64,000 nt of DNA from Terriglobia bacterium (GTDB taxonomy: Bacteria > Acidobacteriota > Terriglobia > 20CM-2-55-15): positions 1 through 64,000 of the forward strand of contig CBDCLE010000003.1 of assembly GCA_965218585.1 (NCBI GenBank). Direction: 5' to 3'. A model generated the notes under the pieces. That model was given only the letters and a program-made list of their open reading frames with translations. It was not told where the DNA came from and did not search any database. A program made the translations under genes and the position numbers. The stretch's first letter is position 1. Every line of letters starts with the position of its first letter. Shown here piece by piece: positions 4,775-53,847 of this stretch.

Positions 4775-5686
4775 ATGACAGGGAACAGTAAGACCCTCAT
4801 GTGTGCAGTTGCATTGCTTGTCTTGCCGCTGCTGGCTCCAGGCCTGCAGGGCGCGCAGGGCCCAGCTGCAGATAAACAGGAGATGATCGATCTGGGACTC
4901 GAACACGAAACCGCGATGGAGCTCTATCAGGCGCTCAAAGAAGAAGCCAATGGCGGCCAGCGCCTGGAGTGGGATAATCTGCCGGATTGGACGGGGATCT
5001 ACACACGGGGAGCGGGTGGCCTAAGCTTCGATCCAGATCAGCCTCCCGGCGGCTTGCCTACCGCGAACCTCACTCCGGAATTTCGTGCAAGGATGCTGGA
5101 GACCATCGAACTCGCGGGTCAGGGCATCCAATGGGACCCTATCAGCACCTGTGCCCCGCCGGGACACCCCCGCTGGTTGACTGAGCCGTTCCTGAAAGAC
5201 TTCGTGGTCACGCCCGACCAGACATACCTGATCAACGAGATGGTCAATGACATTCGCCGGATCTACACCGACGGTCGCAACCACACGGCCGAGGCGGACC
5301 GCTATCCAATGTACAACGGCGACTCTGTCGGCTTCTGGAACGGTCACAAGCTGGTGATTCACACCAATCAACTGCGTGAGGGGATATATCAGCGGAACCA
5401 GCCGAATTACACTGATCAGGTGGAGACCGTGGAGATCTGGGAAAAGGTCGATGACAGGAATCTCGAAGTCGCCGTCTGGGTCTACGATCCACCGGCCCTG
5501 GTCGAACCGTGGTACACCAGGCAGATATTCACAAAGCTCGAGAATCCAGACTACGCACTGCGGATCCGCTATTGGGCCTGCAGCGAGAACCAGAACAACT
5601 CCGTGTTCCAGAACTCCGATGGAGCGACCGATTTTACCGGCTTTACGTTTACGGATGAGGACAATCGTGAAGGAGATCCCCAATGA
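4775..5686 (+). CDS. Secreted uncharacterised protein, Cys-x-Pro partner family (module C)
   Basis: Signal peptide; CAPPGHPR, RRIYTDGR, GDSVGFWNGHKLVIHT, YDPP, C-terminal Cys. Stop overlaps next start (ATGA). Confidence 0.8.
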   Translation: MTGNSKTLMCAVALLVLPLLAPGLQGAQGPAADKQEMIDLGLEHETAMELYQALKEEANGGQRLEWDNLPDWTGIYTRGAGGLSFDPDQPPGGLPTANLTPEFRARMLETIELAGQGIQWDPISTCAPPGHPRWLTEPFLKDFVVTPDQTYLINEMVNDIRRIYTDGRNHTAEADRYPMYNGDSVGFWNGHKLVIHTNQLREGIYQRNQPNYTDQVETVEIWEKVDDRNLEVAVWVYDPPALVEPWYTRQIFTKLENPDYALRIRYWACSENQNNSVFQNSDGATDFTGFTFTDEDNREGDPQ

Positions 5687-6078
5687 GGAAGATGTTTCTT
5701 ACTGCGCTTATGAGTGTCGGTGCCCTTGTGGTCGTCGTCACGCCTGGCCTCGCTCATCATTCCGGTCTGATGTTTGATGCTGGCAGGGAGGTCACAGTGG
5801 ACGGCGTGGTGAAGGAGTTCCAGTACACGAACCCGCACTCGTGGTTGCTGGTGGATGTCACCGATGAGGACGGTACGGTCACGACCTGGGGTTTCGAGGC
5901 GGAAGGGCCCAGCACGTTGCAGCGAGCCGGAATCCGTCCGAGCGACCTGGTGCCGGGTACCAGGTTGACCATTACGGGACATCCCATGAAAGATGGTCGG
6001 CCCGCTGCAGCATGGGTCGACGCAGTACGAGAAGACGGAAAGTACTTCGACCCGCGGGCTGGATTCCGGATAGATTAA
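5683..6078 (+). CDS. Secreted His-His/NPH protein (DUF6152-like, module H)
   Basis: Signal peptide ending GLA then HHS; GVVKEFQYTNPHSW. Confidence 0.82.
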   Translation: MRKMFLTALMSVGALVVVVTPGLAHHSGLMFDAGREVTVDGVVKEFQYTNPHSWLLVDVTDEDGTVTTWGFEAEGPSTLQRAGIRPSDLVPGTRLTITGHPMKDGRPAAAWVDAVREDGKYFDPRAGFRID

Positions 6079-6099
6079 CCCTGCGGGTCTTCTTTTTTT
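6078..6099 (+). terminator. Possible intrinsic terminator
   Basis: Short ACCC-TGC-GGGT stem followed by CTTCTTTTTTT directly after the stop codon. Confidence 0.35.
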
Positions 6100-6103
6100 G
6101 ATC

Positions 6104-6128
6104 GTGCGCTCACAGAGCGCACCTACAG
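6104..6128 (-). repeat. GTAG-type REP palindrome, copy 1
   Basis: Minus strand CTGTAG-GTGCGCTC-TGT-GAGCGCAC; near-identical copy at 27328. Confidence 0.7.
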
Positions 6129-6130
6129 TT

Positions 6131-7039
6131 TTATTGAATCCCGGTTCCGAAAGGCAGGCCCCGGGGCGGATCGGTCCTGCAGGGGGTAGGTCTCCAGCCG
6201 GAATCGTCAGGCTCCTTCTTGAAGTTGCTGCTGGTCACGAACGGTCCGAGCAGATACGTAGGATCTTCGACGATCGTGATGACCACGAACCACTCATCTC
6301 CGTTGGGCTCGCTGAACCAGTTGAAGTACTCGGTCAGGAGCGCATCCTCGCTGTAGGGAACACCGTTCTTTCGCAAGTATCCTGCGCGCATCCCGGTTGT
6401 GACGACTTTCAGAGAGTCGCCTGCCGTGGACATCGGCGCGTTTCCGAAGCCGCGGCCACCCCGCTGGGGAAGAGCGCTCGGGGCCGAGGCTCGGCCCCGG
6501 AGCTGGCCCGGACCTTCCCAGTTGGCCACAGAGTAACCCTGCCAGGTTGGCTCGGTCTCGTTCGCGTCAGACGGGTTGAAGTTAAAGAGCCGGGTCTGTT
6601 CGCCGACATCGGTATCGATCCTCAGAACGTCGTCGCTCTCCCACGTGATGTGCACGCGGACCGGCAAACGCATAACCCCGGCCGCTCCGTACGGCCGGCA
6701 TTCGTTTCCGGCGGCCGTGTCCGCATCCAGGTCCCAGGCATCGGCCCCGCTGACACCTGCCGCGTTGAGGGGTACGCTTATGTAATCGCCCTTTGGCGGC
6801 GTGACCATGCGATGCCGCCAGTCTTCGGTGATCACCGATACCCAGTAACCGGTAAGGTCAAACGCGGCGCCTTCTCGCGGGGTCGGAGGCGGACCGCCTC
6901 TGCCGATACCGCCCGCCCCGCCTCTTCCGCCCCGTCCCTGACCACGGCCCTGGGCATCGAGGTCATCTACAAGGGTCAGCAGCAGGACGGCAGCCAGAGC
7001 TACGGACAGCAGCCGCTTCAAATGCGCACCGTTTCTCAT
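6131..7039 (-). CDS. Secreted module C protein, TEDWRHRM subtype
   Basis: Signal peptide; RGG-rich linker; DLTGYWVSVITEDWRHRMVTPPKGDY, ECRPYG, WQGYSVANWEG, GYLRKNGVP, C-terminal PTPC. Confidence 0.8.
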   Translation of the reverse strand: MRNGAHLKRLLSVALAAVLLLTLVDDLDAQGRGQGRGGRGGAGGIGRGGPPPTPREGAAFDLTGYWVSVITEDWRHRMVTPPKGDYISVPLNAAGVSGADAWDLDADTAAGNECRPYGAAGVMRLPVRVHITWESDDVLRIDTDVGEQTRLFNFNPSDANETEPTWQGYSVANWEGPGQLRGRASAPSALPQRGGRGFGNAPMSTAGDSLKVVTTGMRAGYLRKNGVPYSEDALLTEYFNWFSEPNGDEWFVVITIVEDPTYLLGPFVTSSNFKKEPDDSGWRPTPCRTDPPRGLPFGTGIQ

Positions 7040-7061
7040 ACCTGGTCCTTTTTCATTCCGA

Positions 7062-8030
7062 TCAAGGTCCCACCACACTTTGATACACGGCGTTCAAGAA
7101 CATGTCTCGTGTCCAGAATCCGGTGTCTGGATAACGGCCGTCGTAGTCCAGTGATGTATTGGCCGCGTTGATCTGGTCGAGGGTCATGCCCCGGCCCACC
7201 ATGTCCCGGACGCGGTCCCGGACAATCGTTGCCAGGTCGCGATACTCGTGCACGTCGGCTTCATCGGTTAACCGTCCGTGCCCGGGTATCACATACGTTC
7301 CACCTTCCTGCTTCTCTTCGGGAACTGTGATGTCGAGAATCCGGTTGAGTCCTTCGAGAAATCCGTCGAACGTTCCTCCGCGGTCCGTGTCTATGACAGG
7401 GTAGCTGGTGGTGACGAACAGATCTCCGGCGACGACGACATCCGATCGGCGGAAATAGACAAGGCAGTCGCCGTCGGTGTGAGCGTCGGGCACGTAAAAC
7501 ACCTGGATGGCTTCACCGTTGACGAAGTATTCCTTGGCCGGACCGATGTATGTGTCGGTCGGCCACCCTGCGCCCGGGGGTTCTTCCGGGTCGGCCTCTG
7601 TATAAAGTCGCAGCTGAACATTTTCCTGAGCCAGTATTGTCGCGCTCGACTCCGACAACCTGCCAGTGATCGTGCCCCCTCCGAGCAGTGACCGGCCTCG
7701 GGCCGCCAGGGTCTCATTGCCTCCCATGTGGTCGGGATGCAGGTGGGTATTGATGATAAGGCGAATGGGGCGGTCGGTCAGGCGCTCGATCGCAGCAAGC
7801 ACCTCGTCGCTCATCGAGGCTATTCCGCTGTCAACCACGACGACACCGTCGGGGCCGGTCTGGACGGCAATGTTGCTGCCGGCGCCAACCAGCATGTAGA
7901 CGTTTCCCTGTACCGGGAGAACATCAACCTCTGGCTGTGAAATCTGTCTTTGCGCCCAGGCGGATGCTCCACCTGCGGTGAGGACGAGTACGACGAGAAA
8001 CGAGAGCACGAAATACGGGCTACGGCGCAA
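7062..8030 (-). CDS. Secreted metallo-beta-lactamase-fold hydrolase (cyclase-like)
   Basis: Signal peptide; THLHPDHMGGN, AHTDGD, GD, IPGHG. Confidence 0.88.
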   Translation of the reverse strand: MRRSPYFVLSFLVVLVLTAGGASAWAQRQISQPEVDVLPVQGNVYMLVGAGSNIAVQTGPDGVVVVDSGIASMSDEVLAAIERLTDRPIRLIINTHLHPDHMGGNETLAARGRSLLGGGTITGRLSESSATILAQENVQLRLYTEADPEEPPGAGWPTDTYIGPAKEYFVNGEAIQVFYVPDAHTDGDCLVYFRRSDVVVAGDLFVTTSYPVIDTDRGGTFDGFLEGLNRILDITVPEEKQEGGTYVIPGHGRLTDEADVHEYRDLATIVRDRVRDMVGRGMTLDQINAANTSLDYDGRYPDTGFWTRDMFLNAVYQSVVGP

Positions 8031-8913
8031 GGTTTCGCAACTCCTCGATTCTCAACTGGTACTCGGGGTACGTCGTTTCCGCACCGCCTCGCGCCGCTTC
8101 CTGAGGGATCTCGTAGAACACCCCGAATTCGTTCAGTCTTTCCGTCTCGCCGTCAGACCCCGGCAGGTAATGCGGCACGAAATCCCTCGGTCGCGGGCCC
8201 ACTTCATCAACGACGTCGCAGCGGTTGACGCTGAAGGCACGAAGCTGGTTGAGCGGGTTCAGGATCCAGTCCGTGCTTCGAATGAAGGGTTCGGTCAGAT
8301 AGACAGGATCGCGAACCATCGTAACGACTGTCAGGTAGTCGCCGTTCCGAATGAAGCGCTCGGTCATTGTTGTCCGGTCGCTGGTAGGAACACCGTTGCG
8401 CTGGAGAAACCCTGCTTTGAGATGGGTCGTTTCCACCGTCAGCATGGCTCCGTTCCACTCTCCGGTCGAGAACCCTTGCCAGCGGTGCGCCGCATACCCG
8501 GGCGGACGTTCCCGTCCATCCAACCAGATGACGCGGGTTGTTCGGAAATACAGTCCGAAGATCTCAAACGCGAGGAGCTGCTGGGTTTCCGGATCCAGGA
8601 CTCTCGAGATTCGCATCGGGTTCGGACCGCGGGTCGAATAGACGGCCGGATGGGGAATACACTGGTGTTCCCGGGATGACAGGATGGCCGCGTCCCAGCT
8701 GTCGGCTTTGAGCCGTGCCCGGTCGTTGAGCGGAATCCCTGTGTAGTCTCCCAGGAAGGGGCCGGGCATCCGGTGCTCGAAATCCTCGTGGAGCAACCCG
8801 GTCCATTCGCCCGCGAAATCGTTATTGGCCTGGGCGAACAGGGGACCACCCGACAGCGTGAGCATCAACAGAATCCAAAGGCCTAGAACCCTGCCCTGAT
8901 TCACACCATGCAT
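8020..8913 (-). CDS. Secreted module C protein, HEDxEHR subtype
   Basis: Signal peptide; HEDFEHRMPGP, CIPHP, WQGFSTGEWNGAMLTVETT, RDPVYLTEP. Confidence 0.8.
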   Translation of the reverse strand: MHGVNQGRVLGLWILLMLTLSGGPLFAQANNDFAGEWTGLLHEDFEHRMPGPFLGDYTGIPLNDRARLKADSWDAAILSSREHQCIPHPAVYSTRGPNPMRISRVLDPETQQLLAFEIFGLYFRTTRVIWLDGRERPPGYAAHRWQGFSTGEWNGAMLTVETTHLKAGFLQRNGVPTSDRTTMTERFIRNGDYLTVVTMVRDPVYLTEPFIRSTDWILNPLNQLRAFSVNRCDVVDEVGPRPRDFVPHYLPGSDGETERLNEFGVFYEIPQEAARGGAETTYPEYQLRIEELRNLAP

Positions 8914-8926
8914 GTCGAATCGAATT

Positions 8927-9370
8927 CTAGTTGCCGCGCCCGGCACCACGTCCGCGACCACCACGGCCATCAGCTGGTGCGTTACCTCTACCAAACACCG
9001 CTTCTCCGTTCTCACGGCTGATGCCTCGGGCCCGTCCAACGGTGCGCCGGGTCCTGGCACGACTTCCGGTGATTCTGACCACATCCCCGGGCTGCAGGTC
9101 GTTTCTCGACCAGCCCTGGCGAGTCAATTGATTGGGGCTGGGCAGCTCGAAGTTGTAATTGACGAGCTCGCCGTTTTCCTCGACATCAATACGAATTCGA
9201 CCGTGCGGGTTTGTCCATTCGACTACCGTCACCGCACCCGTGACATCGACCGGCTGGTTGATGTCAAATTCGGATGCGAACGAATGGTGGGCAGATATCT
9301 GAAGAGGAAGCAGAATCGCCGCAGCCAAACCTAAGCAGGCCAGAAAAGGGCGGAAACAAGCTGATTTCAT
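8927..9370 (-). CDS. Secreted His-His/NPH protein (module H) with RGG tail
   Basis: ISA-HHSF, WTNPH, C-terminal GRGGRGRGAGRGN. Confidence 0.82.
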   Translation of the reverse strand: MKSACFRPFLACLGLAAAILLPLQISAHHSFASEFDINQPVDVTGAVTVVEWTNPHGRIRIDVEENGELVNYNFELPSPNQLTRQGWSRNDLQPGDVVRITGSRARTRRTVGRARGISRENGEAVFGRGNAPADGRGGRGRGAGRGN

Positions 9371-9432
9371 GTTTGTGCTCCTACTCGAACCAAATTGCCT
9401 TCCTTTGGATCAGTCTCAAATCCTTGCTCTCT

Positions 9433-10287
9433 TTACTGATCAAAAAACTGAGTGGATACCTCGTTCTCGAGGCATACGAATTCGATCAGGTTTGTATCCA
9501 GCATGATCCGCTGGTTTACCCTGACCGTAAACGGCTCCGTATACGCCATCGGATCTTCAATAGTGATATCGATTTCCAGATTTCCATAGTTCATGCGTGT
9601 GAACCGCTCGGTGATCTTCCCTGACGAGGTCAGAGGGCTGCCGTTGTAATCGAGCCACACGTCGTCCCTGAAACCGTTCGTTTCGACGACCAGCGTATCG
9701 CCCTCCCATCTTCCAATCGAGTAACCGAACCACCAAGGCAACACGTCGTCCTCAGGCTCGGGCAGGGAACGGCCGTCCGTGAAAATCTGCCGGACACCTG
9801 AGTTGGCTTCGTTGAGAATCAAGGTTACATCCGGGGTCTGGATGATCTTCCTCGGCTGGGGATGCAGGTGATAGAGCATGTGGCCCATCGGGAGACAGTA
9901 TGCGTCGGGGTTGCCCGCGGAATTGTCCGCCATTCGCTGTCGACCGACCTCTTCGGCCCATTCCGTGTAGGGCACCTCCATCTGGGCTCCGATCTCAAAA
10001 AAATTTGCCAGGGGAGGCGAACCTGGCGGTGGACTGGGACGCTCCGGGGCCGCGCCTCTGCCGATTTGCCCTCCTACCGGTGCGCGTGGGCCGCCAAGAC
10101 GCTCCCATATGCCGCTCAAATCCGGTTTGCCATTAGACGTTCTGGGTACCGGCCCTTCCAGATCCGGCTCACCGTCCGGCGTCATGGGAACTCCGGACGT
10201 GGCGAAAGCCGGCCACTGGGCCAAAAGCGTTCCCGACATCGAACTCAGGATGACAATCAGACCCGCCGTGTGTAGCAACGTTTTCAT
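9433..10287 (-). CDS. Secreted module C protein
   Basis: Signal peptide; GKPDLSGIW, CLPMG, RQIFTDGR, GYSIGRWEGDTLVVET, EFVCLENE. Confidence 0.82.
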   Translation of the reverse strand: MKTLLHTAGLIVILSSMSGTLLAQWPAFATSGVPMTPDGEPDLEGPVPRTSNGKPDLSGIWERLGGPRAPVGGQIGRGAAPERPSPPPGSPPLANFFEIGAQMEVPYTEWAEEVGRQRMADNSAGNPDAYCLPMGHMLYHLHPQPRKIIQTPDVTLILNEANSGVRQIFTDGRSLPEPEDDVLPWWFGYSIGRWEGDTLVVETNGFRDDVWLDYNGSPLTSSGKITERFTRMNYGNLEIDITIEDPMAYTEPFTVRVNQRIMLDTNLIEFVCLENEVSTQFFDQ

Positions 10288-10362
10288 CGCTGAACCTCCC
10301 GATCCATTCGATCCGTGTATCCGTCTAAACTTTACCATCTCTTCGAGCAACCTCTAAGCAAG

Positions 10363-11226
10363 TCACCGGTCGATGATGCCGGTTCCAAAGGGCAGGCCCT
10401 GCGGGGGATCCGTCCTGCAAGGTGTCGGCTCCCAGTTGGAACCGTCCGGTTCCCTCTTGAAGTGGCTGCTCGTGACGTAGGTTTCGGTCAGATACATCGG
10501 ATCTTCAACGACCGTCGTCACCACGAACCACTCTTCACCGCCAGGTCCCGGGAATCGCGTGTAGTACTCCGTCAGGAGGGCATCCTCACTGTAGGGCAGA
10601 CCGTTCTTCCTCAGGTACCCTCCACGCATCCGGGTCGTGACCACTTCGAGGGAGTCGCCTTCGGCTGAGAAATCGTTTTGCTCGAGGGCAAACCGGCCGC
10701 CACCACGACCGTCGAGTTGGCCTGCACCGACCCAACCTGCAACAGAGTGACCCTGCCAGGACCGTTCGTCTGAGTTCGCCGTCTCCGAAGAGTCAAAATA
10801 GAGGAGCCGCGTCTGCTCGCCGGCGTCCGTGTCGATTCTCAAGACGTCATCACTCTCCCAGGTGATGTGGACCCTTCCTGGCAGACGCATGATCCCTGCA
10901 GCGCCAAACGCCCGGCATTCGTTTCCTGCCGCTATGTCCGCGTCCAGGTCTCATGCGTCGGCTATCCGGTTCGCCTCCTCGTTGAGCGGTACGCTCAGGT
11001 AGTCGCCCTTGGGTGGTGTGACCATCCGGTGCCGCCAGTCTTCAGTAACGACGGCCGTCCAGTAGCCGGTCAGATCAATCGGCGTGGCCTCCTGCCCAGA
11101 CTGGACCCGCCGGCCTCCTTCTTCAACGCCCCCACCCCAGGCCTTCAGATCGGTCACCGTGCCCATGAAGAGCGTCGAAATCAAAGGGGCCCACAACATA
11201 CGGACGAACCGCTTACTTCTTTTCAT
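10363..11226 (-). pseudogene. Paralog of 6131-7039 with in-frame TGA at a conserved Trp
   Basis: Track ORFs 10951-11226 and 10363-10890 share a frame. GAC GCA TGA GAC CTG GAC (DA*DLD) aligns to DAWDLD in the paralog. Confidence 0.75.
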
Positions 11227-11268
11227 TCCCTGTTTCTAACCCCGTTCGGCTTTCACACTTTAAGATTC

Positions 11269-12268
11269 TTATTCCAGTCCCGCTGTTAAGCTTTCGTAAA
11301 CCGCTTCCAGGAACATAGCGCGGGTCCAGAACCCAGTGTCCGGATAACGCCTGTCGTAATCCAGGGAAACGTTCGAGGCTTTGATCTCATCCAGTGTCAA
11401 ACCCCGCTCCACCATGTCCCGGACGCGGTCCCGGATGATCGTCGCCAGGTCCCGATACTCGTGGACGTCGGCTTCATCGGCGGCCCGCCCGTGTCCCGGG
11501 ATCACATAGGTACCGCCTTCCTGCTTCTCCTCAGGCAAAGTTATGTCGAGAATCCGGTTGAGTCCGTCAAGAAAACCTTCATAGGTACCGCCCCGGGTTC
11601 TGTCGATGACGGGATAGCTTGTCGTGACAAACAGATCCCCGGCGACGACCACATCCGAACGACGGAAGTAAACCAGGCTATCTCCATCGGTGTGCGCGTC
11701 AGTTACTTGAATAACCCGAATCCCTTCGCCGTTCAGGAAGAACTCCTTGACCGGGCCGATGTAGGTGTCCGTAGGCCAGGCCGCTTCCGGCAGCGGAGCC
11801 TGGGTATCCGTCGCTGCCCGGAATAAAACGTTTTCCTGGGCCACTATTGTTGCCCGGGATTCATCGACTCCTCCTACTCCGCTACTGAACAGCGGTTGGC
11901 CGCCTGCTGCAAGGATCGCGTTCCCCCCCCGTGTGGTCGGGATGAACATGTGTGTTGATCACGAGCCGGATTGGCCTGTCGGTCAGCTCGCGAATAGCTT
12001 CGCGCACCCTCCTGCCCATCGGTTCGGCGCCCGTGTCGACTACGACAACTCCATCCTCCCCGATCTGCACGGCAATATTGCTTCCCGCCCCGGCCAGCAT
12101 GTAGACGTTGCCCTGGAGGTGAAGCACACCGATCTCGTTCTCACCCTGTGCGGCGTACCCGGTCCCGGTGAATCCAACCCCGCCACAGGCGGCGATAAAC
12201 AGGATGGCCTGTAGCGCCAATGGCCGTAACAGGTCAGTGTCCGATGGCTTTGACGTTTCCCACATCAT
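11269..12268 (-). pseudogene. Secreted MBL-fold hydrolase, paralog of 7062-8030, frameshifted
   Basis: THVHPDHTGG then one extra base in the 8-nt run at 11923-11930; the other frame continues NAILA ... AHTDGD ... IPGHG. Confidence 0.78.
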
Positions 12269-13161
12269 TCAGGTTCCGCGTTCCCCATCAGCTCGCGCAA
12301 CCGAAACCGATACTCCGGATACGTCGTCTCGGCACCACCTCGCGCCGCCTCCTGGGGTATCGCGTAAAACTCGCCGAATTCTGTAAGCCTTTCGGTCTCG
12401 TCTTCGGAGCCGGGCAGGTAATGAGGCACGTAATCCAGTGGCCGGGGTCCGACTTCATCGGCCACGTCACACCGGGTAACCATCAGCCGACTCAGACTCT
12501 GGTTCGGGTTGAGGACCCAGTCGGTACTCCGGATAAAAGGCTCGGTCAAATAGACAGGGTCTTCGACGAAGGTAATCACGGTGAGATAGTTCCCGTTTCG
12601 GATGAAGTGTTCTGTCATTTTAGCTTCATCGCTTGTGGCCACGCCGTTGCGCTGGAGGTAGCCGGCCTTGATGTGCGTTGTCTCGACCGTCAACATCCCG
12701 CCGACCCACTTCCCGGTCGAAAACCCCTGCCAGCGGTGGGGGGCGAACTCGGGTGGATGCTCTCGCCCGTCCATCCAGATCACACGGGTCGTCCGGAAAT
12801 ACAGACCATCGAGCTCGAACGCGACCAGTTCCTGCGCTTCCGGGTCGACGACTCTGGAGATGCGCATGTTGTTGGGACCCCGCGTCGAATAGACGGCCGG
12901 ATGCGGAATACACATGTGCTCCCGCGATGACAGTATTCCCGCGTCCCAGCTGTCCGCCTTCTGACGCGCTTCGTCATTGAGCGGAATACCTGTGTAGTCG
13001 CCCAGAAATGGGCCGGGTCCACGGTGCTCCCGGTCCTCATGGGGCACGCCATACCACTGCCCCGCGAAGTCGTTATTGATCTGGGCAAAGCTTGGATGGC
13101 TCCCCAGCACGAGGGCCGACAACAACAGACCTCGAATACTGGCTGGACTGACCTTCCGCAT
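12265..13161 (-). CDS. Secreted module C protein, HEDxEHR subtype (paralog of 8020-8913)
   Basis: Long blocks identical to 8020-8913 (PGPFLGDYTGIPLND, CIPHPAVYSTRGPN); GAGG RBS. Confidence 0.82.
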   Translation of the reverse strand: MRKVSPASIRGLLLSALVLGSHPSFAQINNDFAGQWYGVPHEDREHRGPGPFLGDYTGIPLNDEARQKADSWDAGILSSREHMCIPHPAVYSTRGPNNMRISRVVDPEAQELVAFELDGLYFRTTRVIWMDGREHPPEFAPHRWQGFSTGKWVGGMLTVETTHIKAGYLQRNGVATSDEAKMTEHFIRNGNYLTVITFVEDPVYLTEPFIRSTDWVLNPNQSLSRLMVTRCDVADEVGPRPLDYVPHYLPGSEDETERLTEFGEFYAIPQEAARGGAETTYPEYRFRLRELMGNAEPE

Positions 13162-13303
13162 ATCAAACCACCTCATAAGTACCTGGACAAGGTGTCCGTC
13201 ATTCTTCCAGATTAGGTTCCCGACTCGGGTAGGGTATCGCGATCCAGCGCGCCACCGCAATTTGTCCAACCCTCGGTCTTTCGGGCGAGTTCCGAAGGCA
13301 CGG

Positions 13304-13771
13304 TCAATCGGCGCTTCCTGACGACTTGGAGTAAAGGAACCTGTCTGCGGAGAGGGCGCCCGCTCCCATTATTAGTACGGCGACTCCCATCGCAATGGAA
13401 AGGAGCTGAAATTCATAGCCTTCGCTTCCAGCCGGCATTCCCCCGGTCCAGTTCATGAAGAAGCCGTTGGGGCCGTTAACTAATATGACTGCGAAAACCT
13501 GGACGACAGTTACGCCGAACGATGCAATTCGGGTCAGAAACCCGACGATCAACCCGAGGCTCCCCAGGACCTCGGCCGTGATGGCGAGGAACGCAAAAAC
13601 GGCCGGAATTCCCCCGACCTCGGTCATGCGGGTCATCGTTGCTTCGAAGCCGGGGCCGCCAAACCAGCCGAACAGCTTCTGTGCTCCGTGGGGGAATATC
13701 ACGATCCCCAACATCACCCTGATGATCACAGGACCGAAATCGTCAGAGGTCTGGATGATCCGAGAGAACAT
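13304..13771 (-). CDS. DoxX-family membrane protein
   Basis: RVMLGIVIFPHGAQKLFGWFGG, GYEF, GAGALSAD; four hydrophobic segments. Confidence 0.88.
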   Translation of the reverse strand: MFSRIIQTSDDFGPVIIRVMLGIVIFPHGAQKLFGWFGGPGFEATMTRMTEVGGIPAVFAFLAITAEVLGSLGLIVGFLTRIASFGVTVVQVFAVILVNGPNGFFMNWTGGMPAGSEGYEFQLLSIAMGVAVLIMGAGALSADRFLYSKSSGSAD

Positions 13772-14027
13772 AGCCAGGATCCCTTGCCTTAAAGAGTTAC
13801 GCGGTTTCTGGTCGCGGCCGTTTGGAGCAGCTGATGGCACCGCATTCTCCCATAGCCAGCTCGTGTGAACAAATTTCTTGACTCTGAACTGCCCACCCAC
13901 AGCTGTTGCGCTGGCTGAAACGGAAATGCTCGCCGCGGTTCCTGATGTTTCAAGTTATCCCGCTGCTTTTGGTGGATAATGGCCGGGCGCTTCGGTGTGT
14001 CAATCGGATCGATCTCGGGAGGAAACA

Positions 14028-18036: not shown

Positions 18037-18058
18037 TATCGGGCGTGGCCCGGCAGAA

Positions 18059-43284: not shown

Positions 43285-43330
43285 CTACCCACTCCGCCGT
43301 AACAAAAATCGCCATTTATGTTTCTATCCG

Positions 43331-43366: not shown

Positions 43367-43500
43367 TTTTGGAGTAGGTGAATACGCCCCAATCGCGAGG
43401 GGAAGCCTCTTCTAACAGGAATATCTGATTCTGCATGGAATGCAGATAGGCACCAGAGGCAAAAACTGAAGTTTTCCGCTATTTTCCTCTGTCTCTGTCC

Positions 43501-44031: not shown

Positions 44032-44059
44032 CTCGATCCCCTCCCTTCGTGCATATTGG

Positions 44060-45655: not shown

Positions 45656-46610
45656 ATGAGCTCAATGTTTCACCACCTTGTTAGAGCGGGCCGAATAATA
45701 ATATGTGTCGCGGTGTTGTTCACGCTCGTCCCTTTATCCACCAACGCACAGGAAACTGAAGCGCCCGATGAAGGCATCATAAAAGTCACTCTGCTCGGTG
45801 TTGGCGGCGGACCCGAAGGTGGCCTTTTCGGACCCACTGATCTCGGCATCAATATTTCCACGTTGGTTGAGATTGAGGATGTTGCTTTCCTGTTCGATGC
45901 GGGTCGCGGCGCCGCCGAGCAGATAGCCAAGCTTGGCAAGAGTTATTTCGAGAAGGTCGACAAGGTCTATCTCACGCACCTGCATGGCGACCATAATGTG
46001 GGTGTTCCCGACTTGTGGTTGTTCCCGGTTCGAACGAACCAGAGGACAGTACCCCTGCAAGTATTTGGCCCGGCGGGCACCAAAGACATGTCCGATCATA
46101 TATTTGCGGCGTTCGAATACAATATGCTCTATAACAGCAATTTATCCGCCGAAGCTTCGCGTCTCATAGGCACAGACATCACACAAGGTGTCGTGTATAA
46201 CCAGGACGGCATCACGATTACCGCCTTTGACGTGGACCACACTCCTCCCCGTGATCGTGACAATCATGAACAATTTCCGGCCCTGGGGTTCCGCGTAGAC
46301 TACAGTGGCCGTTCCGTTGTCATTTCCGGTGACACACGCTTTTCAGAGAACCTCATCGAATATTCTCAGGGTGTCGACGTGCTCATTCATGAGGTTGGCG
46401 GCGGCGGTGGTGGTGGCCGAGGCGGCTGAGCTGTTTAACCGCGTGCAACCAAAACTGGCGGTCTATTCCCATATTTTCATTGGCCAAGATCAACGTCTGA
46501 CGGACCAAACTCGGAACGCCAATTATGAAGGCCCTCTCTTGGTTGGCCATGAAATGGATGTCATCATGATTGGTGAAGACGTCACCACAACACGCTTGGG
46601 GGACAATTGA
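45656..46610 (+). pseudogene. Secreted RNase Z/AtsA-like MBL protein with internal deletion/frameshift
   Basis: TLLG, FDAG, THLHGDH, DH, SGDT, LIHE; frame breaks at 46415-46429 and resumes AEAAELF...PKLAVYSH. Confidence 0.78.
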
Positions 46611-47650
46611 TCTTGGGTCACTTTTTCAGGAGACATGGTCTTTGCGTGGGAATGTGGTTGCTGCTATCGCCGGCCGTCACGTTCGCGCACCATTCAATAG
46701 ATGCGTTTTTCGATCGAGCCACAGTTTCGGAGCTGGAGGGCACGATAACGCAGATCGTCTGGCGGAATCCACACGTCGGCTTTGTGCTTCTAACGGGTAG
46801 CGGAGCCAGTGGCGAGCAATGGGCGCTCCACGGTGCGGCGATAAATAGGTTGGAGCGGGGCGGTATTGCTCAAGAAGTTTTTGGTGTCGGTGACCGAGTT
46901 CGCGTAGCGGGCTGGCCCGACAAGCGCGGCAGGAACGCGATGTTCGTGACGAACATGCTTTTACCCGGCGGTAACGAGTTACGGATGTATCCTGGCCGTG
47001 GGCAGCCGGCGAGGTGGACCGAAGACAGGGAGTCCGGGGAGATCGACATCGTTGACCTATCAGATTCCGAGAGTCGCGGCCGAGGTATCTTCCGGGTCTG
47101 GACTCTGGATGGACCCTTTCGAAACAGTACCCGGGAGCCACTGGTACTTACGGAGGCAGCTGTAACCGCAAGAGAGGCTTGGGATCCTCTGACTGACGAT
47201 CCTTCGCTTCGCTGTGTTCCGCCCGGTCTGCCGAACGCCATGCTCAGTCCCTTTCCTTTCGAGTTTATCGACAGGGGAGACACCATTCGCATGCGCGTTG
47301 AAGAATGGGACGCAATACGCACCATACATATGACATCAGAGCAAGACCCTGAAGATGTGATGCCCAGCCCCATGGGTCATTCAGTTGGAAGATGGGAAGG
47401 GCGCACACTGGTTGTAGACACGAGCCGCATCAATTGGCCGCTTCTCGACGGCGATGGAACCCCGCAGAGCGAAGATGTAAAGATAGTAGAGAGATTCACG
47501 CTGAGCGAAGACGAAAGCCACTTAAGCTTCGAAATCACAGCAACCGATCCTCGGTACATGGCGGAACCCGCAATCTGGGATCTGCGTTACGTTTGGAATC
47601 CGAACGTCGACATCAAGCCTTTCGATTGCGCATTCGAACCGGCAAACTAA
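46607..47650 (+). CDS. Module H + module C fusion
   Basis: TFA-HHS, WRNPH; DDPSLRCVPPGLP, GHSVGRWEGRTLVVDT, PFDC. Confidence 0.83.
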   Translation: MILGHFFRRHGLCVGMWLLLSPAVTFAHHSIDAFFDRATVSELEGTITQIVWRNPHVGFVLLTGSGASGEQWALHGAAINRLERGGIAQEVFGVGDRVRVAGWPDKRGRNAMFVTNMLLPGGNELRMYPGRGQPARWTEDRESGEIDIVDLSDSESRGRGIFRVWTLDGPFRNSTREPLVLTEAAVTAREAWDPLTDDPSLRCVPPGLPNAMLSPFPFEFIDRGDTIRMRVEEWDAIRTIHMTSEQDPEDVMPSPMGHSVGRWEGRTLVVDTSRINWPLLDGDGTPQSEDVKIVERFTLSEDESHLSFEITATDPRYMAEPAIWDLRYVWNPNVDIKPFDCAFEPAN

Positions 47651-47679: not shown

Positions 47680-48117
47680 TCACTGCGATGACGTGTCGGG
47701 GAGTCCGCGCATACGCGCCACCACACGGTCGAGACTCAGCATACCCGACCCCCTGGAAGCCACGTACAGGAAGAAGAAGCAGTTGAAGATTGCAGACTCG
47801 CCGAGGATGATCGGCGGTCGGTAGATGGGCAGGATCGCGAACGGGTACTGCCGCAGGAAGTATGCAGCGGCCATGTGCCCGCTGCAGATGAACGCGGCCG
47901 AACTCGCATAGAGGCCAGTCATGATCATGAAACCGCCGATCGTCTCGATGACTCCGGAGACGCCCAGTAGCGAAAGCGGTTCGACCGGTCCTCCACCGCG
48001 CGCGCCTGGCGGCCACCCGAACAGTTTCGTAGTCCCGTGCATCCAGTACATCATCCCGACGACGATGCGCGTCGTGGCGTAGATCAGTTCCGAGTACCTG
48101 TTGAGGAATCTATCCAC
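47680..48117 (-). CDS. DoxX-family membrane protein
   Basis: RIVVG..HGTTKLFGWP, IETIGG, MAAAYF, GSGMLSLD. Confidence 0.85.
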   Translation of the reverse strand: MDRFLNRYSELIYATTRIVVGMMYWMHGTTKLFGWPPGARGGGPVEPLSLLGVSGVIETIGGFMIMTGLYASSAAFICSGHMAAAYFLRQYPFAILPIYRPPIILGESAIFNCFFFLYVASRGSGMLSLDRVVARMRGLPDTSSQ

Positions 48118-51237: not shown

Positions 51238-51280
51238 CGCACCGTCTGGGCGTCGTTCCCTCGATCAGGTCGCCGCTGGA

Positions 51281-52312
51281 CTAGGGACCCGTCAAGAGTT
51301 GGTAGGCCTCCGCGATCAGGTTAACTCTACGCTCCTCATAAAGGAGCCAGTTTTCGTGGTCGGGAAAAGAGAGGTTCTCGCGCATATCTTCCAGGCTTCT
51401 TCCTTCGGCGATCCCGCTGGCAACGGCCGCCTCGAGCGCTCGAAGAAAATCAAGATAGAGCATCAAATCGGCTTTTTCTCCAACGATATTGCCGTGGCCC
51501 GCAACGAGAATGTCAAAATCCAGCTCCTGAACCCTGGCATTTGCGTCCACGTACCGATCGACAGGATAACCGTTTAAGCTCACTGGAAAGCGTTGCACGT
51601 GAAGGAGATCTACGCCGAAGACCGTCCGCTCCTCAGGGAATAGCAAGACGGTCATGTCGTCGGAGTGAGCGGGATCCGGGTGTATCAAATCCACCCTGCT
51701 GCCCCCCAGTGTGATGCTCATCCGGGTCGAGTACACGATGTCCGGTCTGGGTGTATCGGCATTGATTTCCACACCCGTGATGCTGTCGTCCTCATCCCTG
51801 TCGTACTTGTCGAAGTTGCCGGGGTATCCCGGGTCCGTTGCCTCAGCCCTTTCGATTCTTCCGTTTCCGTTCCGGTCCATCTGGCCTGCATTGCTGGGGA
51901 AGGGAGCATCCAGAGCAGTCACCACGTTTTCGTGCGCAACGAACGTGGCCGTGTCGGCAAACACGTTGCCGCCTGTGGAGTGTTCCGGGTGATGGTGACT
52001 ATAGATCACATACGTCACGGTGGAACCGAAGCGGTCTCGAAGCTCCGTCTTGAGCCACTCGGCGAACTCGACGCCGATAGGGTCGGCCAGGATGACGCCT
52101 TCAGGTGTTACCAGGAACACCGTGTTGTGGATGGCATCCCGTCCTTCATAGAGGTTGCCGGCGATGTTGATGATTTCGCCTGGGGGGTCTACTTCTTCGA
52201 CTGGATTCACCGGGGTATCGACTTGCGGGGCGCAAGCGGACGCTATTAACGCAACGCACGGAACTCTCACCCAGCGGATCAGTCTATCGAACATGACCTT
52301 TCCCGATGACAT
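51281..52312 (-). CDS. MBL-fold lipoprotein with inserted EF-hand pair (paralog of 37265-38326)
   Basis: ASAC lipobox; SHHHPEH; DRNGNGRIERAE, DRDEDDSITGVE; AGHG. Confidence 0.83.
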   Translation of the reverse strand: MSSGKVMFDRLIRWVRVPCVALIASACAPQVDTPVNPVEEVDPPGEIINIAGNLYEGRDAIHNTVFLVTPEGVILADPIGVEFAEWLKTELRDRFGSTVTYVIYSHHHPEHSTGGNVFADTATFVAHENVVTALDAPFPSNAGQMDRNGNGRIERAEATDPGYPGNFDKYDRDEDDSITGVEINADTPRPDIVYSTRMSITLGGSRVDLIHPDPAHSDDMTVLLFPEERTVFGVDLLHVQRFPVSLNGYPVDRYVDANARVQELDFDILVAGHGNIVGEKADLMLYLDFLRALEAAVASGIAEGRSLEDMRENLSFPDHENWLLYEERRVNLIAEAYQLLTGP

Positions 52313-52801
52313 CTAGCGAGTTGGCACCCAGGTCCGCATCGCCTCCATATGGAGCGAGTCGGGACCGATCTCGACGAGCTCGATTCTCGCACCGCCGGGA
52401 CCGAAGACGTTCGTGAGAAGCGCGTTTGTTGAACCGGAACGCGGCTGCTCGGCCTCCAGGCCCTCCGACCCGAGCCTCCGGACCGTTGCTTCCAGATCGT
52501 CGACTTGTATACCGACGTGCGTGAACCCGGCCGGACGATCCGGATTGGCAGGCTGGATTTCCAGGAACGTGTCACGATTTATGTGGAGATAAGTGAGGCG
52601 TGGAGTGCCATCGGGCGCGCTGATGGCGAATGCTTCGCGAAAGCCCATTGTCTCCGTGTAGAAGTTGATCGCTTCGTCGAAGTTGTCGACGCTGATCCCG
52701 ACGTGATTCAATGCCTGATCGCCCTGCTGCTGTGCAGCAGTGGGTTGTATCACCAGGATGCCGACGAGCACCCCCATTAGAAATAGCGCTAAGCCACGCA
52801 T
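52313..52801 (-). CDS. Secreted VOC/glyoxalase-family protein
   Basis: LNHVGISV, FY..MGF, THVG, GARIELVE. Confidence 0.86.
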   Translation of the reverse strand: MRGLALFLMGVLVGILVIQPTAAQQQGDQALNHVGISVDNFDEAINFYTETMGFREAFAISAPDGTPRLTYLHINRDTFLEIQPANPDRPAGFTHVGIQVDDLEATVRRLGSEGLEAEQPRSGSTNALLTNVFGPGGARIELVEIGPDSLHMEAMRTWVPTR

Positions 52802-52827
52802 CTGAACCTCCTAAAAGCTTGTAAGTG

Positions 52828-53847
52828 TTATCCGCGGACGATGCATTCGTAAGGCTCTACTTGTACATCCGGGAGCCACAGCCAGGACTTTTCCATTACG
52901 ACCGGCTCGGTAAAATTCGCCGCATCGGTAACCGTCATTGTCAAATCCAAGCGGCTGCCGTCCGTACTGGGAGTGAAGCGTTCCTCGACCCGGGCGGCTT
53001 CACTAAGGGGTATGCCAAGGACGTGGTGGAAGTAATCCCAACTGATCCGGTTCGTCATTACAACGAGCGTTCTGTCCTCCCACCGGCCGACGGAGTAACC
53101 CAACTCTGTGCGGGCTTGGGCTCGGCCCGGTTCGGCGTCCAGGTAAATTGTGCGAACGATGTCGTACTCCTCTATTCGGAGCAGAACGGTCTCATCCTGC
53201 TCGACAAACTCCATCGGATAGGGCTGTTCCATGATCGTGGGCATGCCTTTGGCCGTGCAATTGAGAATCGGACTGTCGGCCACGGGATCGAACGCGTCGG
53301 CTGCAGCCTGTGCGGTGGCCGTTAAGGGATAGCTCTCGTTCCAGAGTCGACTCTGCCTGAAACTGGTGCTCCAGACTCGGAAGATACCCCTGGCCGGATC
53401 CGAACTGTCGCCCGCCTCGGCGAGCCATGTTTCCGATGTGCCGATCGTTTCGCCTTCCCACCTCAGTGCCGATCCGGGACTCAACAGGACTTCCTGCGTT
53501 CCCGGCAACAGCATATTTCGGGCAAACAGTCCGTTTCCCCCTCTTCTTGCCGGATTACCGGCGATCCGGACCCTTTCGCCAACCGTCAGGACATCGCTTG
53601 AGACATCCATCCGCCTCAAAATACTGACAGAGTTCGTTTCAATACCCCAAAGTTCTTCTTCGCCGTTGTCCGCCCCCACCGAAATTACTAAACGCACATG
53701 GGGGTTTCGCCAGCTGATCTGGGTGAGGTTTCCCTCGATCTCGACGATGGTACCCACATCGAAGTTTGCGCCAACACTGTGGTGAGCATAGGCCACAGGG
53801 AGACAAAGAAGCCCGAAAAGAAGCCAAACGCCAGCTCTAGGTATCAT
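52828..53847 (-). CDS. Module H + module C fusion (close paralog of 38390-39418)
   Basis: AYA-HHSVGANFDV, WRNPH, CTAKGMP, GYSVGRWE, PYEC; long stretches identical to 38390-39418. Confidence 0.84.
   Translation of the reverse strand: MIPRAGVWLLFGLLCLPVAYAHHSVGANFDVGTIVEIEGNLTQISWRNPHVRLVISVGADNGEEELWGIETNSVSILRRMDVSSDVLTVGERVRIAGNPARRGGNGLFARNMLLPGTQEVLLSPGSALRWEGETIGTSETWLAEAGDSSDPARGIFRVWSTSFRQSRLWNESYPLTATAQAAADAFDPVADSPILNCTAKGMPTIMEQPYPMEFVEQDETVLLRIEEYDIVRTIYLDAEPGRAQARTELGYSVGRWEDRTLVVMTNRISWDYFHHVLGIPLSEAARVEERFTPSTDGSRLDLTMTVTDAANFTEPVVMEKSWLWLPDVQVEPYECIVRG

Follow-up and report, generated by a model that had tools for sequence, protein, structure and literature searches.

A secreted two-protein module in Terriglobia: a DUF6152 protein predicted to begin with His-His and a partner modelled as a FABP-like barrel

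What do two gene families do together when they recur side by side along one piece of a bacterial chromosome? The question is raised by the window analysed here, a stretch of 64,000 nt from Terriglobia bacterium (GCA_965218585.1, contig CBDCLE010000003.1), in which the loci of both families lie between positions 4775 and 53847. A preliminary description had seen a two-module system with 10 copies of a module H (5 alone, 5 fused) and 13 of a module C (8 alone, 5 fused). The same numbers were recovered by us with Pfam for H (DUF6152, PF19649) and with BLASTP and an HMM of our own for C, two of the C copies (6131, 10363) belonging to a divergent subtype, C'. The label DUF6152, already given at that time, proved correct, as the family matches 10/10 window copies of H above the gathering cut-off (E 9e-30 to 9e-14). 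Our analysis indicates that H and C are the halves of a single secreted protein module, a small protein starting with His-His and a FABP-like barrel, which probably bind each other and most likely reside in the periplasm. The features of the window are as follows.

4775-5686 (4745-5686 in the copy list), + strand: stand-alone C, partner of the H at 5683-6078 (C HMM E 1.9e-59); chain 1 in the complex model
5683-6078, + strand: stand-alone H (DUF6152, Pfam E 9e-30); signal peptide followed by HHS, NPH at residues 50-52
6131-7078, - strand: C', the diverged form of C found with metallo-beta-lactamase-fold (MBL) hydrolases, start probably at 7039 (C HMM E 1.4e-20, in two pieces)
7062-8030, - strand: secreted MBL-fold hydrolase of the C-MBL-C' cassette (Lactamase_B E 6.4e-18)
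8020-8913, - strand: stand-alone C, MBL-cassette type (C HMM E 9.2e-62)
8927-9370, - strand: stand-alone H (DUF6152, Pfam E 8.6e-24)
9433-10350, - strand: stand-alone C, likely start 10287 (C HMM E 8.5e-70)
10363-11226, - strand: second copy of C' (C HMM), probable pseudogene
11269-12268, - strand: second copy of MBL, frameshifted, with HVHPDH motif, probable pseudogene
12265-13161, - strand: stand-alone C, MBL-cassette type, paralogue of 8020-8913 (C HMM E 2e-62)
16756-17595, + strand: stand-alone C, upstream of the H at 17620 (C HMM E 1.5e-73)
17620-18036, + strand: stand-alone H (DUF6152, Pfam E 1.3e-21)
18059-18814, - strand: stand-alone C, the copy used for the fold model (AF2 pLDDT 76)
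18837-19237 (18837-19298 in the copy list), - strand: stand-alone H, frameshifted (DUF6152, Pfam)
24148-25236, + strand: H-C fusion, immediately followed by a PQQ dehydrogenase gene (DUF6152 E 4.2e-22, residues 17-102; C HMM E 2e-70)
34115-35155, + strand: H-C fusion (DUF6152 E 1e-19; C HMM E 9.4e-70)
35177-35608, + strand: stand-alone H (DUF6152, Pfam E 5.5e-17), directly after the fusion at 34115
38390-39418 (38390-39448 in the copy list), - strand: H-C fusion (DUF6152 E 3.9e-20; C HMM E 3.7e-80)
46607-47650, + strand: H-C fusion (DUF6152 E 7.4e-14; C HMM E 1.3e-75)
52828-53847 (52828-53982 in the copy list), - strand: H-C fusion (DUF6152 E 3e-18; C HMM E 7.3e-80)

The Pfam entry for DUF6152 carries no function, fold or partner, and a search of a paper library returned no mention of DUF6152 or PF19649, nor any paper on either family; our analysis supplied the predicted OB fold, the rule of N-terminal His-His, the pairing with C and the expansion of the family. 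We aligned H modules from 135 reading frames, 72 from the same genome and 63 from other taxa. At about 30% identity, near-invariance among side chains with chemical function is confined to three histidines, namely the HH pair (kept in 128/129 and 129/130 aligned residues) and the His of NPH (129/130), while neither Cys nor Met is conserved. Cleavage exactly before HH fits 122 of the 127 frames that have at least 15 residues upstream of it, according to a simple rule of our own (hydrophobic core, with a small residue at both -1 and -3) and not to SignalP; position -1 is occupied by A (103 of the 127), G (13), S (10) or P (1). The claim that HH comes immediately after the signal peptide is borne out by this rule, and secretion was upheld for both modules. 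The H at 5683-6078 models as an OB fold of about 100 residues (AF2 pLDDT 89; VIA-align Z 8.6 to SSB/PriB), in which a helix lies between strands 3 and 4 of a five-stranded barrel and the NPH His is located in the loop that joins strands 1 and 2. In the Pfam search, DUF6152 was the sole family matched, the weak extra matches were OB-fold families, and no match to CusF, CopC or ZinT appeared at E up to 10.

Module C matched no Pfam or NCBIfam model and, by sequence, no PDB entry. Its early Cys is present in 363/379 and its late Cys in 246/251 (394 C sequences). The model of the copy at 18059-18814 suggests a 10-stranded FABP-like barrel (Foldseek, FABP1, E 5.4e-4), close to CRBP IV (VIA-align Z 9.8, rmsd 2.8, 118 residues aligned) and to the Oplophorus luciferase 19-kDa protein (Z 9.7). 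Across FABP/CRBP/UnaG and the luciferase protein, the values were Z 9.8, 9.7 and 9.4, with rmsd 2.8-3.2 over 118-121 aligned residues, that is, nearly the whole target. These top matches all hold a small hydrophobic ligand in the barrel, and some of them are enzymes. C also shares a GxW motif on the first strand, which we take to be a signature of the intracellular lipid-binding protein family. It differs from these proteins in being secreted and bacterial, in having a partner subunit and a conserved Cys pair, and in carrying an insert of about 65 residues in place of their helix-turn-helix lid. One of the conserved Cys lies inside this insert and the second past the last strand; they probably form a disulfide, although both Cys loops have pLDDT below 50 when C is modelled alone.

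The window is a small sample of a large expansion. The whole 4.55-Mb genome contains around 72 reading frames with H and around 115 with C, each congeneric genome gives 110-126 matches to H, and clustering of the C family at 50% identity yields 17,263 clusters or more. It had been claimed that a stand-alone H always abuts a C-containing gene, and this holds for all five in the window; the C at 4775-5686, whose orthologues are 63-96% identical and without exception unnamed or "hypothetical", even overlaps with its stop the start of the following H by 4 nt. Genome-wide, a C domain lies within 1 kb of 43/59 stand-alone H frames, nearly always on the same strand, and 13 more H frames are fusions with C. 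The order is H then C in 13/13 fusions, so that HH stays at the mature N-terminus. In a tree of 207 C domains, the 16 fused rows require at least 7 state changes, which implies that fusion or fission was repeated. The gene-neighbourhood survey that had been suggested earlier shows that the pairing recurs in this genome and in other phyla, with an H frame in 47/80 C loci from Acidobacteriota, Gamma- and Alphaproteobacteria and Verrucomicrobiia. When 301 genomes were sampled from the phylum, 27 had both families, 3 H only, 3 C only and 268 neither. Distances among H and among their partner C are correlated over 46 pairs (Mantel r 0.436, against a mean of 0.002, sd 0.037 and maximum of 0.135 in 1000 permutations), a correlation that joint duplication of the pairs can suffice to produce and that denotes linkage, not binding; nearest paralogues were concordant in 17/46 pairs. 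C frames exceed H frames and many C genes have no nearby H (the clusters listed include 10 C on their own and stretches with C alone); therefore, C can work without H, or one H may serve several C.

Modelling of H, C and their complex had also been proposed, and in the resulting complex model HH and NPH form part of the interface. The complex score, which is the model's own confidence, was 0.62 (0.74, 0.61 and 0.62 in three runs), and the best of 3 controls reached 0.32. This mark is reached by 58/80 solved complexes and 2/110 mismatched pairs, counts that are only rough for H:C because our own alignments were used. The runs have at least 93% of contacts in common, with partner pLDDT of at least 90. 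A sequence search found no solved relative of either chain, which makes the memory of a solved complex an unlikely source of the pass. In the model, the interface comprises residues 25-30 (HHSGLM) and 49-52 (TNPH) of H and Cys126, Cys269, Glu155, Arg207, Asn272 and Asn274 of C, and H docks on the lid, two barrel-end turns and the C-terminal tail of C. Mapping these residues onto the strand order and the FABP topology, we take the docking face to be the open (portal) end of the barrel, which would leave the His triad in the interface, beside the Cys pair and a conserved Glu. Fusions, gene order, co-occurrence, correlated divergence and a complex model above its controls all back the H:C complex that had been proposed, and we regard the pairing on its own as very likely.

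The neighbourhood offers some indication of the processes in which the module may take part. MBL matches lie within 2 kb of H or C in 24/51 cases, as compared with 5.3 +- 2.2 (maximum 11) in 500 trials of random placement, and the C-MBL-(H)-C' cassette recurs at least 10 times. In the window, the MBL at 7062-8030 has a signal peptide and an HLHPDH motif (closest NCBIfam model TIGR04559, 98.7 bits vs a cut-off of 280), and the accompanying C' at 6131-7078 keeps the GxW strand and both Cys in its sequence. Amidohydro_3 and PQQ dehydrogenases are weakly linked to H/C, no link to sulfatases was found within the genome, and 0 of its 13 matches to TonB-dependent receptors lie within 2 kb of H or C, which argues against a transporter-accessory role. 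The preliminary description had H and C acting alongside the neighbouring hydrolases in general, and of this only the association with one MBL-fold subfamily stands clearly.

The explanation that we favour is that H and C form a 1:1 complex, or one chain ordered H to C, in which signal-peptide cleavage would expose His1-His2 as the new N-terminus of H. The three His and the free N-terminal amine would hold a metal above the mouth of the cavity of the C barrel, where small molecules would bind, and the 70-120 diverged paralogue pairs per genome may serve the breakdown of different small organic compounds in the periplasm, with one subfamily acting in C-MBL-(H)-C' cassettes with the secreted MBL-fold hydrolase. 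Taken whole, we consider this explanation evenly balanced between right and wrong. A metal site in the complex is slightly favoured, whereas catalysis, as opposed to mere binding, falls a little short of even. Copper with oxidative chemistry seems unlikely, and none of the data specifically indicate that metal.

Among the alternatives, the one to be taken most seriously, even if we find it rather unlikely, is a non-catalytic carrier. C would be a periplasmic FABP-like protein that binds small molecules of hydrophobic or amphipathic nature, capped by the OB fold of H, and the two would shuttle or hold substrates or products for neighbouring MBL hydrolases, amidohydrolases and PQQ dehydrogenases, with a His triad that touches the ligand or gates the cap and no catalytic metal. 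The best structural matches of C are indeed ligand carriers (CRBP, FABP, bile-acid-binding protein), varied ligand specificity predicts many diverged paralogues, H is absent beside many C genes, and enzymes adjoin the H/C genes. However, three near-invariant His in paralogues only about 30% identical, one of them at an obligatory free N-terminus, would be unusual for a plain cap, the transporter link is absent, and the C fold also yields enzymes such as the Oplophorus luciferase 19-kDa protein and the OlmO spirocyclase. A regulatory role of the TIMP type appears improbable. The N-terminal domain of TIMP is an OB fold that acts through its processed N-terminus, which is inserted into a partner protein; its Cys1, in a domain with disulfides, chelates the active-site zinc of metalloproteases. 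By analogy, the free N-terminus of H, also an OB fold in the model, with an invariant mature N-terminus that is predicted to be buried in a protein interface, would chelate the zinc of a partner hydrolase (the MBL of the cassette, for instance) or the metal of a site in C, and so inhibit or regulate hydrolases. Secreted MBL hydrolases do repeatedly adjoin H and C, but MBL cassettes are a minority, most H pair with C, and among the clusters listed H is fused with C and never with MBL. Moreover, H starts with His1-His2 and its partner is a barrel instead of a protease; having no conserved Cys, it has none of the TIMP disulfides. The matches listed in the fold searches of H include no TIMP chain, which is evidence neither way.

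Still less probable is a periplasmic metal chaperone or buffer likened to CusF, CopC or ZinT. CusF is a periplasmic OB-fold Cu(I)/Ag(I) chaperone whose metal ligands are Met, His and Trp residues of the barrel, CopC has an N-terminal His, and ZinT is a lipocalin-like protein with a His-rich N-terminus. H is likewise a small secreted protein with a predicted OB fold, a His-rich mature N-terminus and a possible metal site, the combination of an OB fold and a lipocalin/FABP-type barrel recalls CusF and ZinT respectively, and the gene at 55177-56376 encodes a heavy-metal-binding domain (HMBD). Nevertheless, 70-126 diverged copies per genome are far above any known metal-trafficking need, the window has no genes for efflux or uptake of copper or zinc next to the pairs, the Pfam search gave none of these families, and H differs from CusF in conserving HH and NPH but no Met and in having an obligate barrel partner. 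Finally, a true histidine-brace copper protein or enzyme, with C as its substrate-binding module, is hardly credible. Such copper sites are known in LPMOs, CopC and PmoB, and H resembles them in that His should be residue 1 after cleavage, with its free amine and imidazole available, in a further conserved His distant in sequence, and in being first in the fusions, as a free N-terminus would demand. In contrast, the H model is an OB barrel and not an immunoglobulin-like or cupredoxin-like sandwich, His1 is immediately followed by His2, the model puts the site at the contact with another protein, and there is no sequence match. Membership of the LPMO/CopC/PmoB type is contradicted at the fold level: modelled as an OB fold, H is therefore no relative of these proteins, and the histidine brace invoked in the preliminary description is an analogy of motifs only.

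Some copies in the window carry disruptions. The second C' (10363-11226) has an in-frame TGA at 10951-10953, where the first copy has Trp, and the second MBL is frameshifted immediately past its HVHPDH motif. In the H at 18837, one frame encodes the signal peptide (19166-19237) and another the HH domain (18837-19166), with an overlap of a single base; the frameshift falls exactly where the two parts join. The identical sequence of each of these three copies was found in a contig from another study.

The window contains ten copies of H, a small secreted module in which the signal peptide is followed by His-His and, later, by an NPH motif, and 13 copies of C, a second secreted module with a pair of Cys residues. 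Pfam, BLASTP and HMM searches recovered all of them, and the counts, motifs and coordinates of the preliminary description were correct. Its DUF6152 label was also right: the ten H copies match Pfam PF19649 with 51.8-103.1 bits (gathering score 27 bits). Five H copies stand alone (131-147 residues) and five form the N-terminal domain of proteins of 346-384 residues, and each of the five stand-alone copies abuts a C-bearing gene, as had been noticed from the sequence. The C copies, five in the fusions and eight alone, were found with a BLASTP search and with an HMM trained on the copies in the window; C proteins bear signal peptides of their own. Two of them belong to C', a divergent subtype found beside MBL, a secreted metallo-beta-lactamase-fold hydrolase.

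Copies of H and C in the window
5683-6078, plus strand, H stand-alone, Pfam DUF6152
8927-9370, minus strand, H stand-alone, Pfam DUF6152
17620-18036, plus strand, H stand-alone, Pfam DUF6152
18837-19298, minus strand, H stand-alone, frameshifted, Pfam DUF6152
35177-35608, plus strand, H stand-alone, Pfam DUF6152
24148-25236, plus strand, H-C fusion, DUF6152 at N-terminus
34115-35155, plus strand, H-C fusion, DUF6152 at N-terminus
38390-39448, minus strand, H-C fusion, DUF6152 at N-terminus
46607-47650, plus strand, H-C fusion, DUF6152 at N-terminus
52828-53982, minus strand, H-C fusion, DUF6152 at N-terminus
4745-5686, plus strand, C stand-alone, BLASTP/HMM
6131-7078, minus strand, C stand-alone (C'), BLASTP/HMM
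8020-8913, minus strand, C stand-alone, BLASTP/HMM
9433-10350, minus strand, C stand-alone, BLASTP/HMM
10363-11226, minus strand, C stand-alone (C'), BLASTP/HMM
12265-13161, minus strand, C stand-alone, BLASTP/HMM
16756-17595, plus strand, C stand-alone, BLASTP/HMM
18059-18814, minus strand, C stand-alone, BLASTP/HMM

We found six lines of evidence that agree in indicating that H and C very probably work together as a pair. Throughout the genome, a C domain lies within 1 kb of 43 of the 59 stand-alone H frames, almost always on the same strand, and 13 further H frames are joined to C, in the order H then C in 13/13. In a tree of 207 C domains, from which C matches covering fewer than 140 model positions were omitted, the 16 fused rows need at least seven changes of state. 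An H frame is also present in 47 of 80 C loci of other taxa, mostly directly adjacent, before or after C. Among 301 genomes, both modules are present in 27 and both are absent from 268, while 3 carry H alone (weak matches) and 3 carry C alone, related genomes not being independent of one another in these counts. The divergence of H correlates with that of C (Mantel r 0.436 vs a maximum of 0.135 in 1000 permutations) and therefore pairs duplicate as units; the nearest paralogues of H and of its partner C agree in 17 of 46 pairs, a set that dropped H frames with E >1e-15, pairs more than 600 bp apart and opposite-strand pairs. Clustering the other reading frames of the 80 loci gave no third universal partner, the largest cluster being spurious antisense frames of high-GC DNA and the second-largest a TonB-type receptor-like protein from 9 loci.

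The AlphaFold model of H 5683-6078 (pLDDT 89) has, after the signal helix, three strands, a short helix and two strands in about 100 residues, which is the order of an OB fold. VIA-align superposes it on SSB and PriB (Z 8.6-8.0, rmsd 2.3-3.4, 78-84 residues aligned), and Foldseek against the PDB gave the SSB/PriB families again at E about 1e-3, with zero rows at E ≤0.001. On model topology and VIA-align, we assign the modelled H to the OB fold. A Pfam scan at E up to 10 returned DUF6152 and otherwise weak unrelated or OB-fold matches, no NCBIfam family matched H 5683-6078 at E up to 0.1, and PDB sequence profile searches with H and with C found chance-level rows alone (E 0.39 or worse), with no solved relative of either. 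In an alignment of 135 frames from this genome and other phyla, numbered as in H 5683-6078, conservation of at least 80% is reached by His25, His26, Gly41, Asn50, Pro51, His52, Gly64, Trp69, Gly83 and Gly92, the histidines being found in 128/129, 129/130 (His26) and 129/130 (His52) frames. Of the 127 frames that extend far enough upstream, 122 have a hydrophobic core and small -1/-3 residues ending exactly before HH, cleavage being judged by a simple rule on these two features and not by SignalP, and on this ground His-His is predicted to be the mature N-terminus of H.

For C, the model of 18059-18814 reaches a pLDDT of 76 only. It consists of a first strand with F-S-G-V-W, a long one-helix insert and nine further strands, and its VIA-align matches are CRBP IV (6at8; Z 9.8, rmsd 2.8, 118/133 residues), the 19-kDa protein of Oplophorus luciferase (5b0u; Z 9.7), UnaG (4i3b; Z 9.4) and further FABPs, nitrobindin and bilin lyases, while Foldseek aligned it to FABP1 with E 5.4e-4 and a TM of 0.60 on the target. 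The modelled C thus has the 10-stranded antiparallel barrel superposing on FABP/CRBP that defines the FABP-like fold, with an insert of about 65 residues in place of the helical lid. Its likeness to the lipocalin/FABP (calycin) superfamily is at the fold level only. No Pfam family matched C at E up to 10 and no NCBIfam family matched six C-bearing proteins (five stand-alone and one H-C fusion) at E up to 0.1; the ESM Atlas gave unnamed clusters only, the nearest named ones being DUF3471 (0.80) and DUF6152 (0.78), both under the trust level. Conservation was taken from 394 C sequences.

Conserved residues of C (numbering of C 4775-5686)
Cys126, 96% conserved
Cys269, 98% conserved
Arg161, 93% conserved
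Glu220, 95% conserved
Asp238, 99% conserved
Gly182, 100% conserved
Glu155, 81% conserved

The complex modelled from C residues 30-303 and H residues 25-131 (the pair 4775-5686 and 5683-6078) scored 0.62 vs 0.32 for the best of 3 controls. In the benchmark of this score, 58 of 80 solved complexes attained that mark, as did 2 of 110 mismatched pairs, counts that hold only roughly here because the alignments for H:C were self-made. Contact agreement between runs was at least 93% and the partner pLDDT at least 90; the Cys loops of C, with pLDDT below 50 when C was modelled alone, belong in the complex to a chain with an overall pLDDT of 90-91. H contributes to the modelled interface its His-His N-terminus (residues 25-30), T-N-P-H (49-52) and parts of its barrel. 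C contributes the lid insert (114-126), which includes Cys126, the beginning of strand 2, the Glu155 turn, Arg207 and the tail past the last strand (253-300), with Cys269, Asn272 and Asn274. Mapped through the strand order of C and the FABP topology, this surface would be the open end of the C barrel, and we infer that the three His lie near one another and near the barrel cavity.

The preliminary description had related H to the histidine-brace proteins, and this link stands in part: a His is predicted at the mature N-terminus, but H is not a sandwich of the LPMO, CopC or PmoB type. The catalytic domain of LPMOs (AA9/AA10 type) is an immunoglobulin- or fibronectin-III-like beta-sandwich; H also fits His as mature residue 1 (122/127 frames, rule-based prediction), whereas its model is a five-stranded OB fold with a helix between strands 3 and 4 and no beta-sandwich. 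CopC/PcoC has a cupredoxin-like sandwich, again different from the OB fold modelled for H. The Pfam scan at E up to 10 gave no match of H to the LPMO family model or to CopC, and membership of H in either family is ruled out on fold and sequence. H may share with histidine-brace proteins a metal site whose ligands are the amine of the N-terminus and imidazoles, although in H:C the putative site would belong to an unrelated fold and lie where two subunits meet.

Of the three near-invariant His of H, one is at an obligatorily free N-terminus and all are in the predicted interface, which is what is expected of a metal site of amine and imidazole ligands. Small organic ligands of the periplasm are suggested, in turn, by the barrel partner, by the extreme diversification and by the enzymes encoded nearby, and for these reasons we favour a composite metal site that would lie over the ligand barrel and be catalytic or ligand-processing. 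The main rival is that H:C is a plain carrier. There are two minor rivals. H might be a TIMP-like regulator, as TIMP-like inhibitors also have an OB fold; these have an N-terminal Cys1 and conserved disulfides, while the mature residue 1 of H is His and H is devoid of a conserved Cys column. Alternatively, H:C might be a metal chaperone. CusF is an OB fold whose barrel carries a Cu(I) site of conserved Met, His and Trp, and the H model shares this fold; in contrast to CusF, H has no Met column at 80% conservation in 135 frames, and the Pfam scan at E up to 10 gave no CusF match. A more far-reaching form of the favoured composite site, to which we give only a small chance, is that H:C is a new class of two-subunit periplasmic metalloenzyme, in which copper (or iron) held by the N-terminal amine and three His of the OB-fold subunit, over the mouth of a FABP-like substrate barrel, would oxidise small organics that are hard to degrade; diversified into 70-120 pairs of paralogues per genome among certain Gammaproteobacteria and Acidobacteriota, it would be a major, hitherto unseen toolkit for turning over the organic matter of soils and dissolved organic matter.

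Secreted enzymes are abundant in the window, with Amidohydro_3 in at least five genes, the MBL fold in seven, and single copies of a sulfatase, a PQQ dehydrogenase, a formamidase, an M24 peptidase and a glyoxalase-fold protein, together with NHL propellers and two DoxX proteins. The proposal that H and C act beside neighbouring hydrolases fared differently by family. MBL genes are clearly linked genome-wide, 24 of 51 matches lying within 2 kb of H/C vs 5.3 ± 2.2 at random (maximum 11 in 500 trials), and the link is weak for Amidohydro_3 (9/36 within 2 kb vs 3.9 ± 1.9 expected, random maximum 10), but the sulfatases show none (0/7 in the genome within 2 kb). PQQ dehydrogenases are also weakly linked (4/14 within 1 kb vs 1.3 ± 1.1 expected, reached in 40 of 1000 random trials), and TonB-dependent receptors within 2 kb of H/C number 0/13 in the genome. 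Of the four H/C-adjacent PQQ dehydrogenase genes, within about 450 bp, one is in the window (region 24148-27299, plus strand, which starts with the H-C fusion) and the others are at C1:144822, C24:120744 and C17:248274 on other contigs. DoxX has only 4 copies in the genome, too few for an association test; two of them, 13304-13900 and 47680-48117 (both minus strand), adjoin C or H-C genes, and the former bears a weak likeness (42 bits vs a cut-off of 80) to the HvfX family, whose annotation is Cu-binding RiPP maturation protein.

The cassette-type MBL subfamily has 27 reading-frame pieces in the genome, in recurrent C-MBL-(H)-C' cassettes (strand marks of some MBL frames in this listing are unreliable). 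The same arrangement is present in a Vicinamibacterales locus (L077), and of the 80 loci, which are centred on 18059-type C, only 2 contain an MBL of the cassette type. From 13900 down to 6131, the minus strand reads DoxX, C, MBL, C', C, H, C, MBL, C', an order in which the C-MBL-C' unit is duplicated. A secreted EF-hand protein (30953-31858, plus strand) and an MBL-fold protein with weak internal EF-hand-like matches (37265-38350, minus strand) are also interspersed with the H and C genes. An HMBD (heavy-metal-binding domain) protein at 55177-56376 (minus strand), just downstream of the H-C fusion 52828-53847, is flanked by two secreted-looking proteins without Pfam match (54016-55173 and 56264-58234, minus strand). 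A DDE_5 transposase (41861-43180, Pfam E 4e-85, within 39697-45229) is situated between two H-C fusions, in the stretch with the lowest GC of the window (0.549-0.571 for 40-48 kb).

Both families are very large. The 4.55-Mb genome, in 26 contigs, has 73 DUF6152 matches, 70 of them above cut-off, and our own HMMs found 72 H and 115 C frames among its six-frame reading frames (stop to stop, at least 80 residues); gene counts are slightly lower because a few frames are parts of one broken gene (C7_60561 with C7_61132, and C10_162691 with C10_163122). Mean paralogue identity is about 30% for H and 27% for C. In each of the four other genomes of the genus there are 110-126 H matches, and H is present in 12 of 15 other genomes of the family, in 1 of 10 from other sampled families of the class and in 30 of the 301 genomes of the phylum sample, as is C (30). 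Against 1.84 billion representatives, the C profile matched at least 17,263 clusters (50% identity) at E ≤0.001 and 10,536 at E ≤1e-10. Titled C records are mostly from Acidobacteriota (Bryobacterales, Terriglobia, Vicinamibacterales), others being from Gammaproteobacteria (Steroidobacteraceae), Alphaproteobacteria and Verrucomicrobiia, and the H/C pair is conserved across phyla. Some matches, such as the library proteins P0386, P0388 and P0390 (about 450-530 residues), have two C modules in tandem and therefore C-C fusions exist besides H-C fusions. By our estimate, H and C together account for a few percent of all genes in some heterotrophs from soil and aquatic habitats. Metagenome contigs placed on the window reached a summed depth of 135-387 at bin 9610-10100 and 32-63 at 17957-18447, about 3-7 elsewhere, and contig joints connect 18325 to 9683; the two bins correspond to the best-conserved parts of two C genes and recruit contigs of many other organisms.

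The homologues encountered are all named "hypothetical protein" or "DUF6152" in their sources. In the library searched, which excludes supplementary gene lists, we found no literature on DUF6152 or PF19649, on a histidine brace with an OB fold, or on a periplasmic OB fold with N-terminal histidine and copper; a wider search on the histidine brace gave, at the level of abstracts, only work on LPMO and YcnI and none on the H/C family. No description was found of the partnership, the N-terminal His-His OB fold, the FABP-like partner, the MBL cassettes or the expansion, and we could match no characterised system to a design in which an OB fold with an obligatory His-His start is predicted to contact a ligand barrel. 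H is catalogued only as a DUF and C, without Pfam model, is uncatalogued. If the metal site is real, the histidine-brace idea would apply to a new fold and to an intersubunit site; if H:C is an enzyme or a carrier for small organics, it bears on how bacteria handle hard-to-degrade organic matter in the periplasm.

Some genes of the window are broken. In the second C-MBL-C' cassette (10363-12268, minus strand) MBL is frameshifted just past its HVHPDH motif, and in C' an in-frame TGA (10951-10953) takes the place of a Trp of the paralogue 6131-7078; this copy looks decayed and is the older-looking one. In H 18837-19298 (minus strand) the signal peptide is encoded in one frame and the HH domain in another, with a one-base overlap at 19166, and the frame changes exactly at the predicted cleavage site (region 19134-19237). 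Contigs from another study are identical over 6627-13856 and over 18926-19400 and have the same letters over all three defects, which are therefore not errors of one assembly. An Amidohydro_3 gene at 22300-24046 (plus strand) likewise appears split, probably by a frameshift, with model positions 1-241 at 22558-23343 and 269-472 at 23381-23959 in overlapping reading frames (22300-23463 and 22982-24046).
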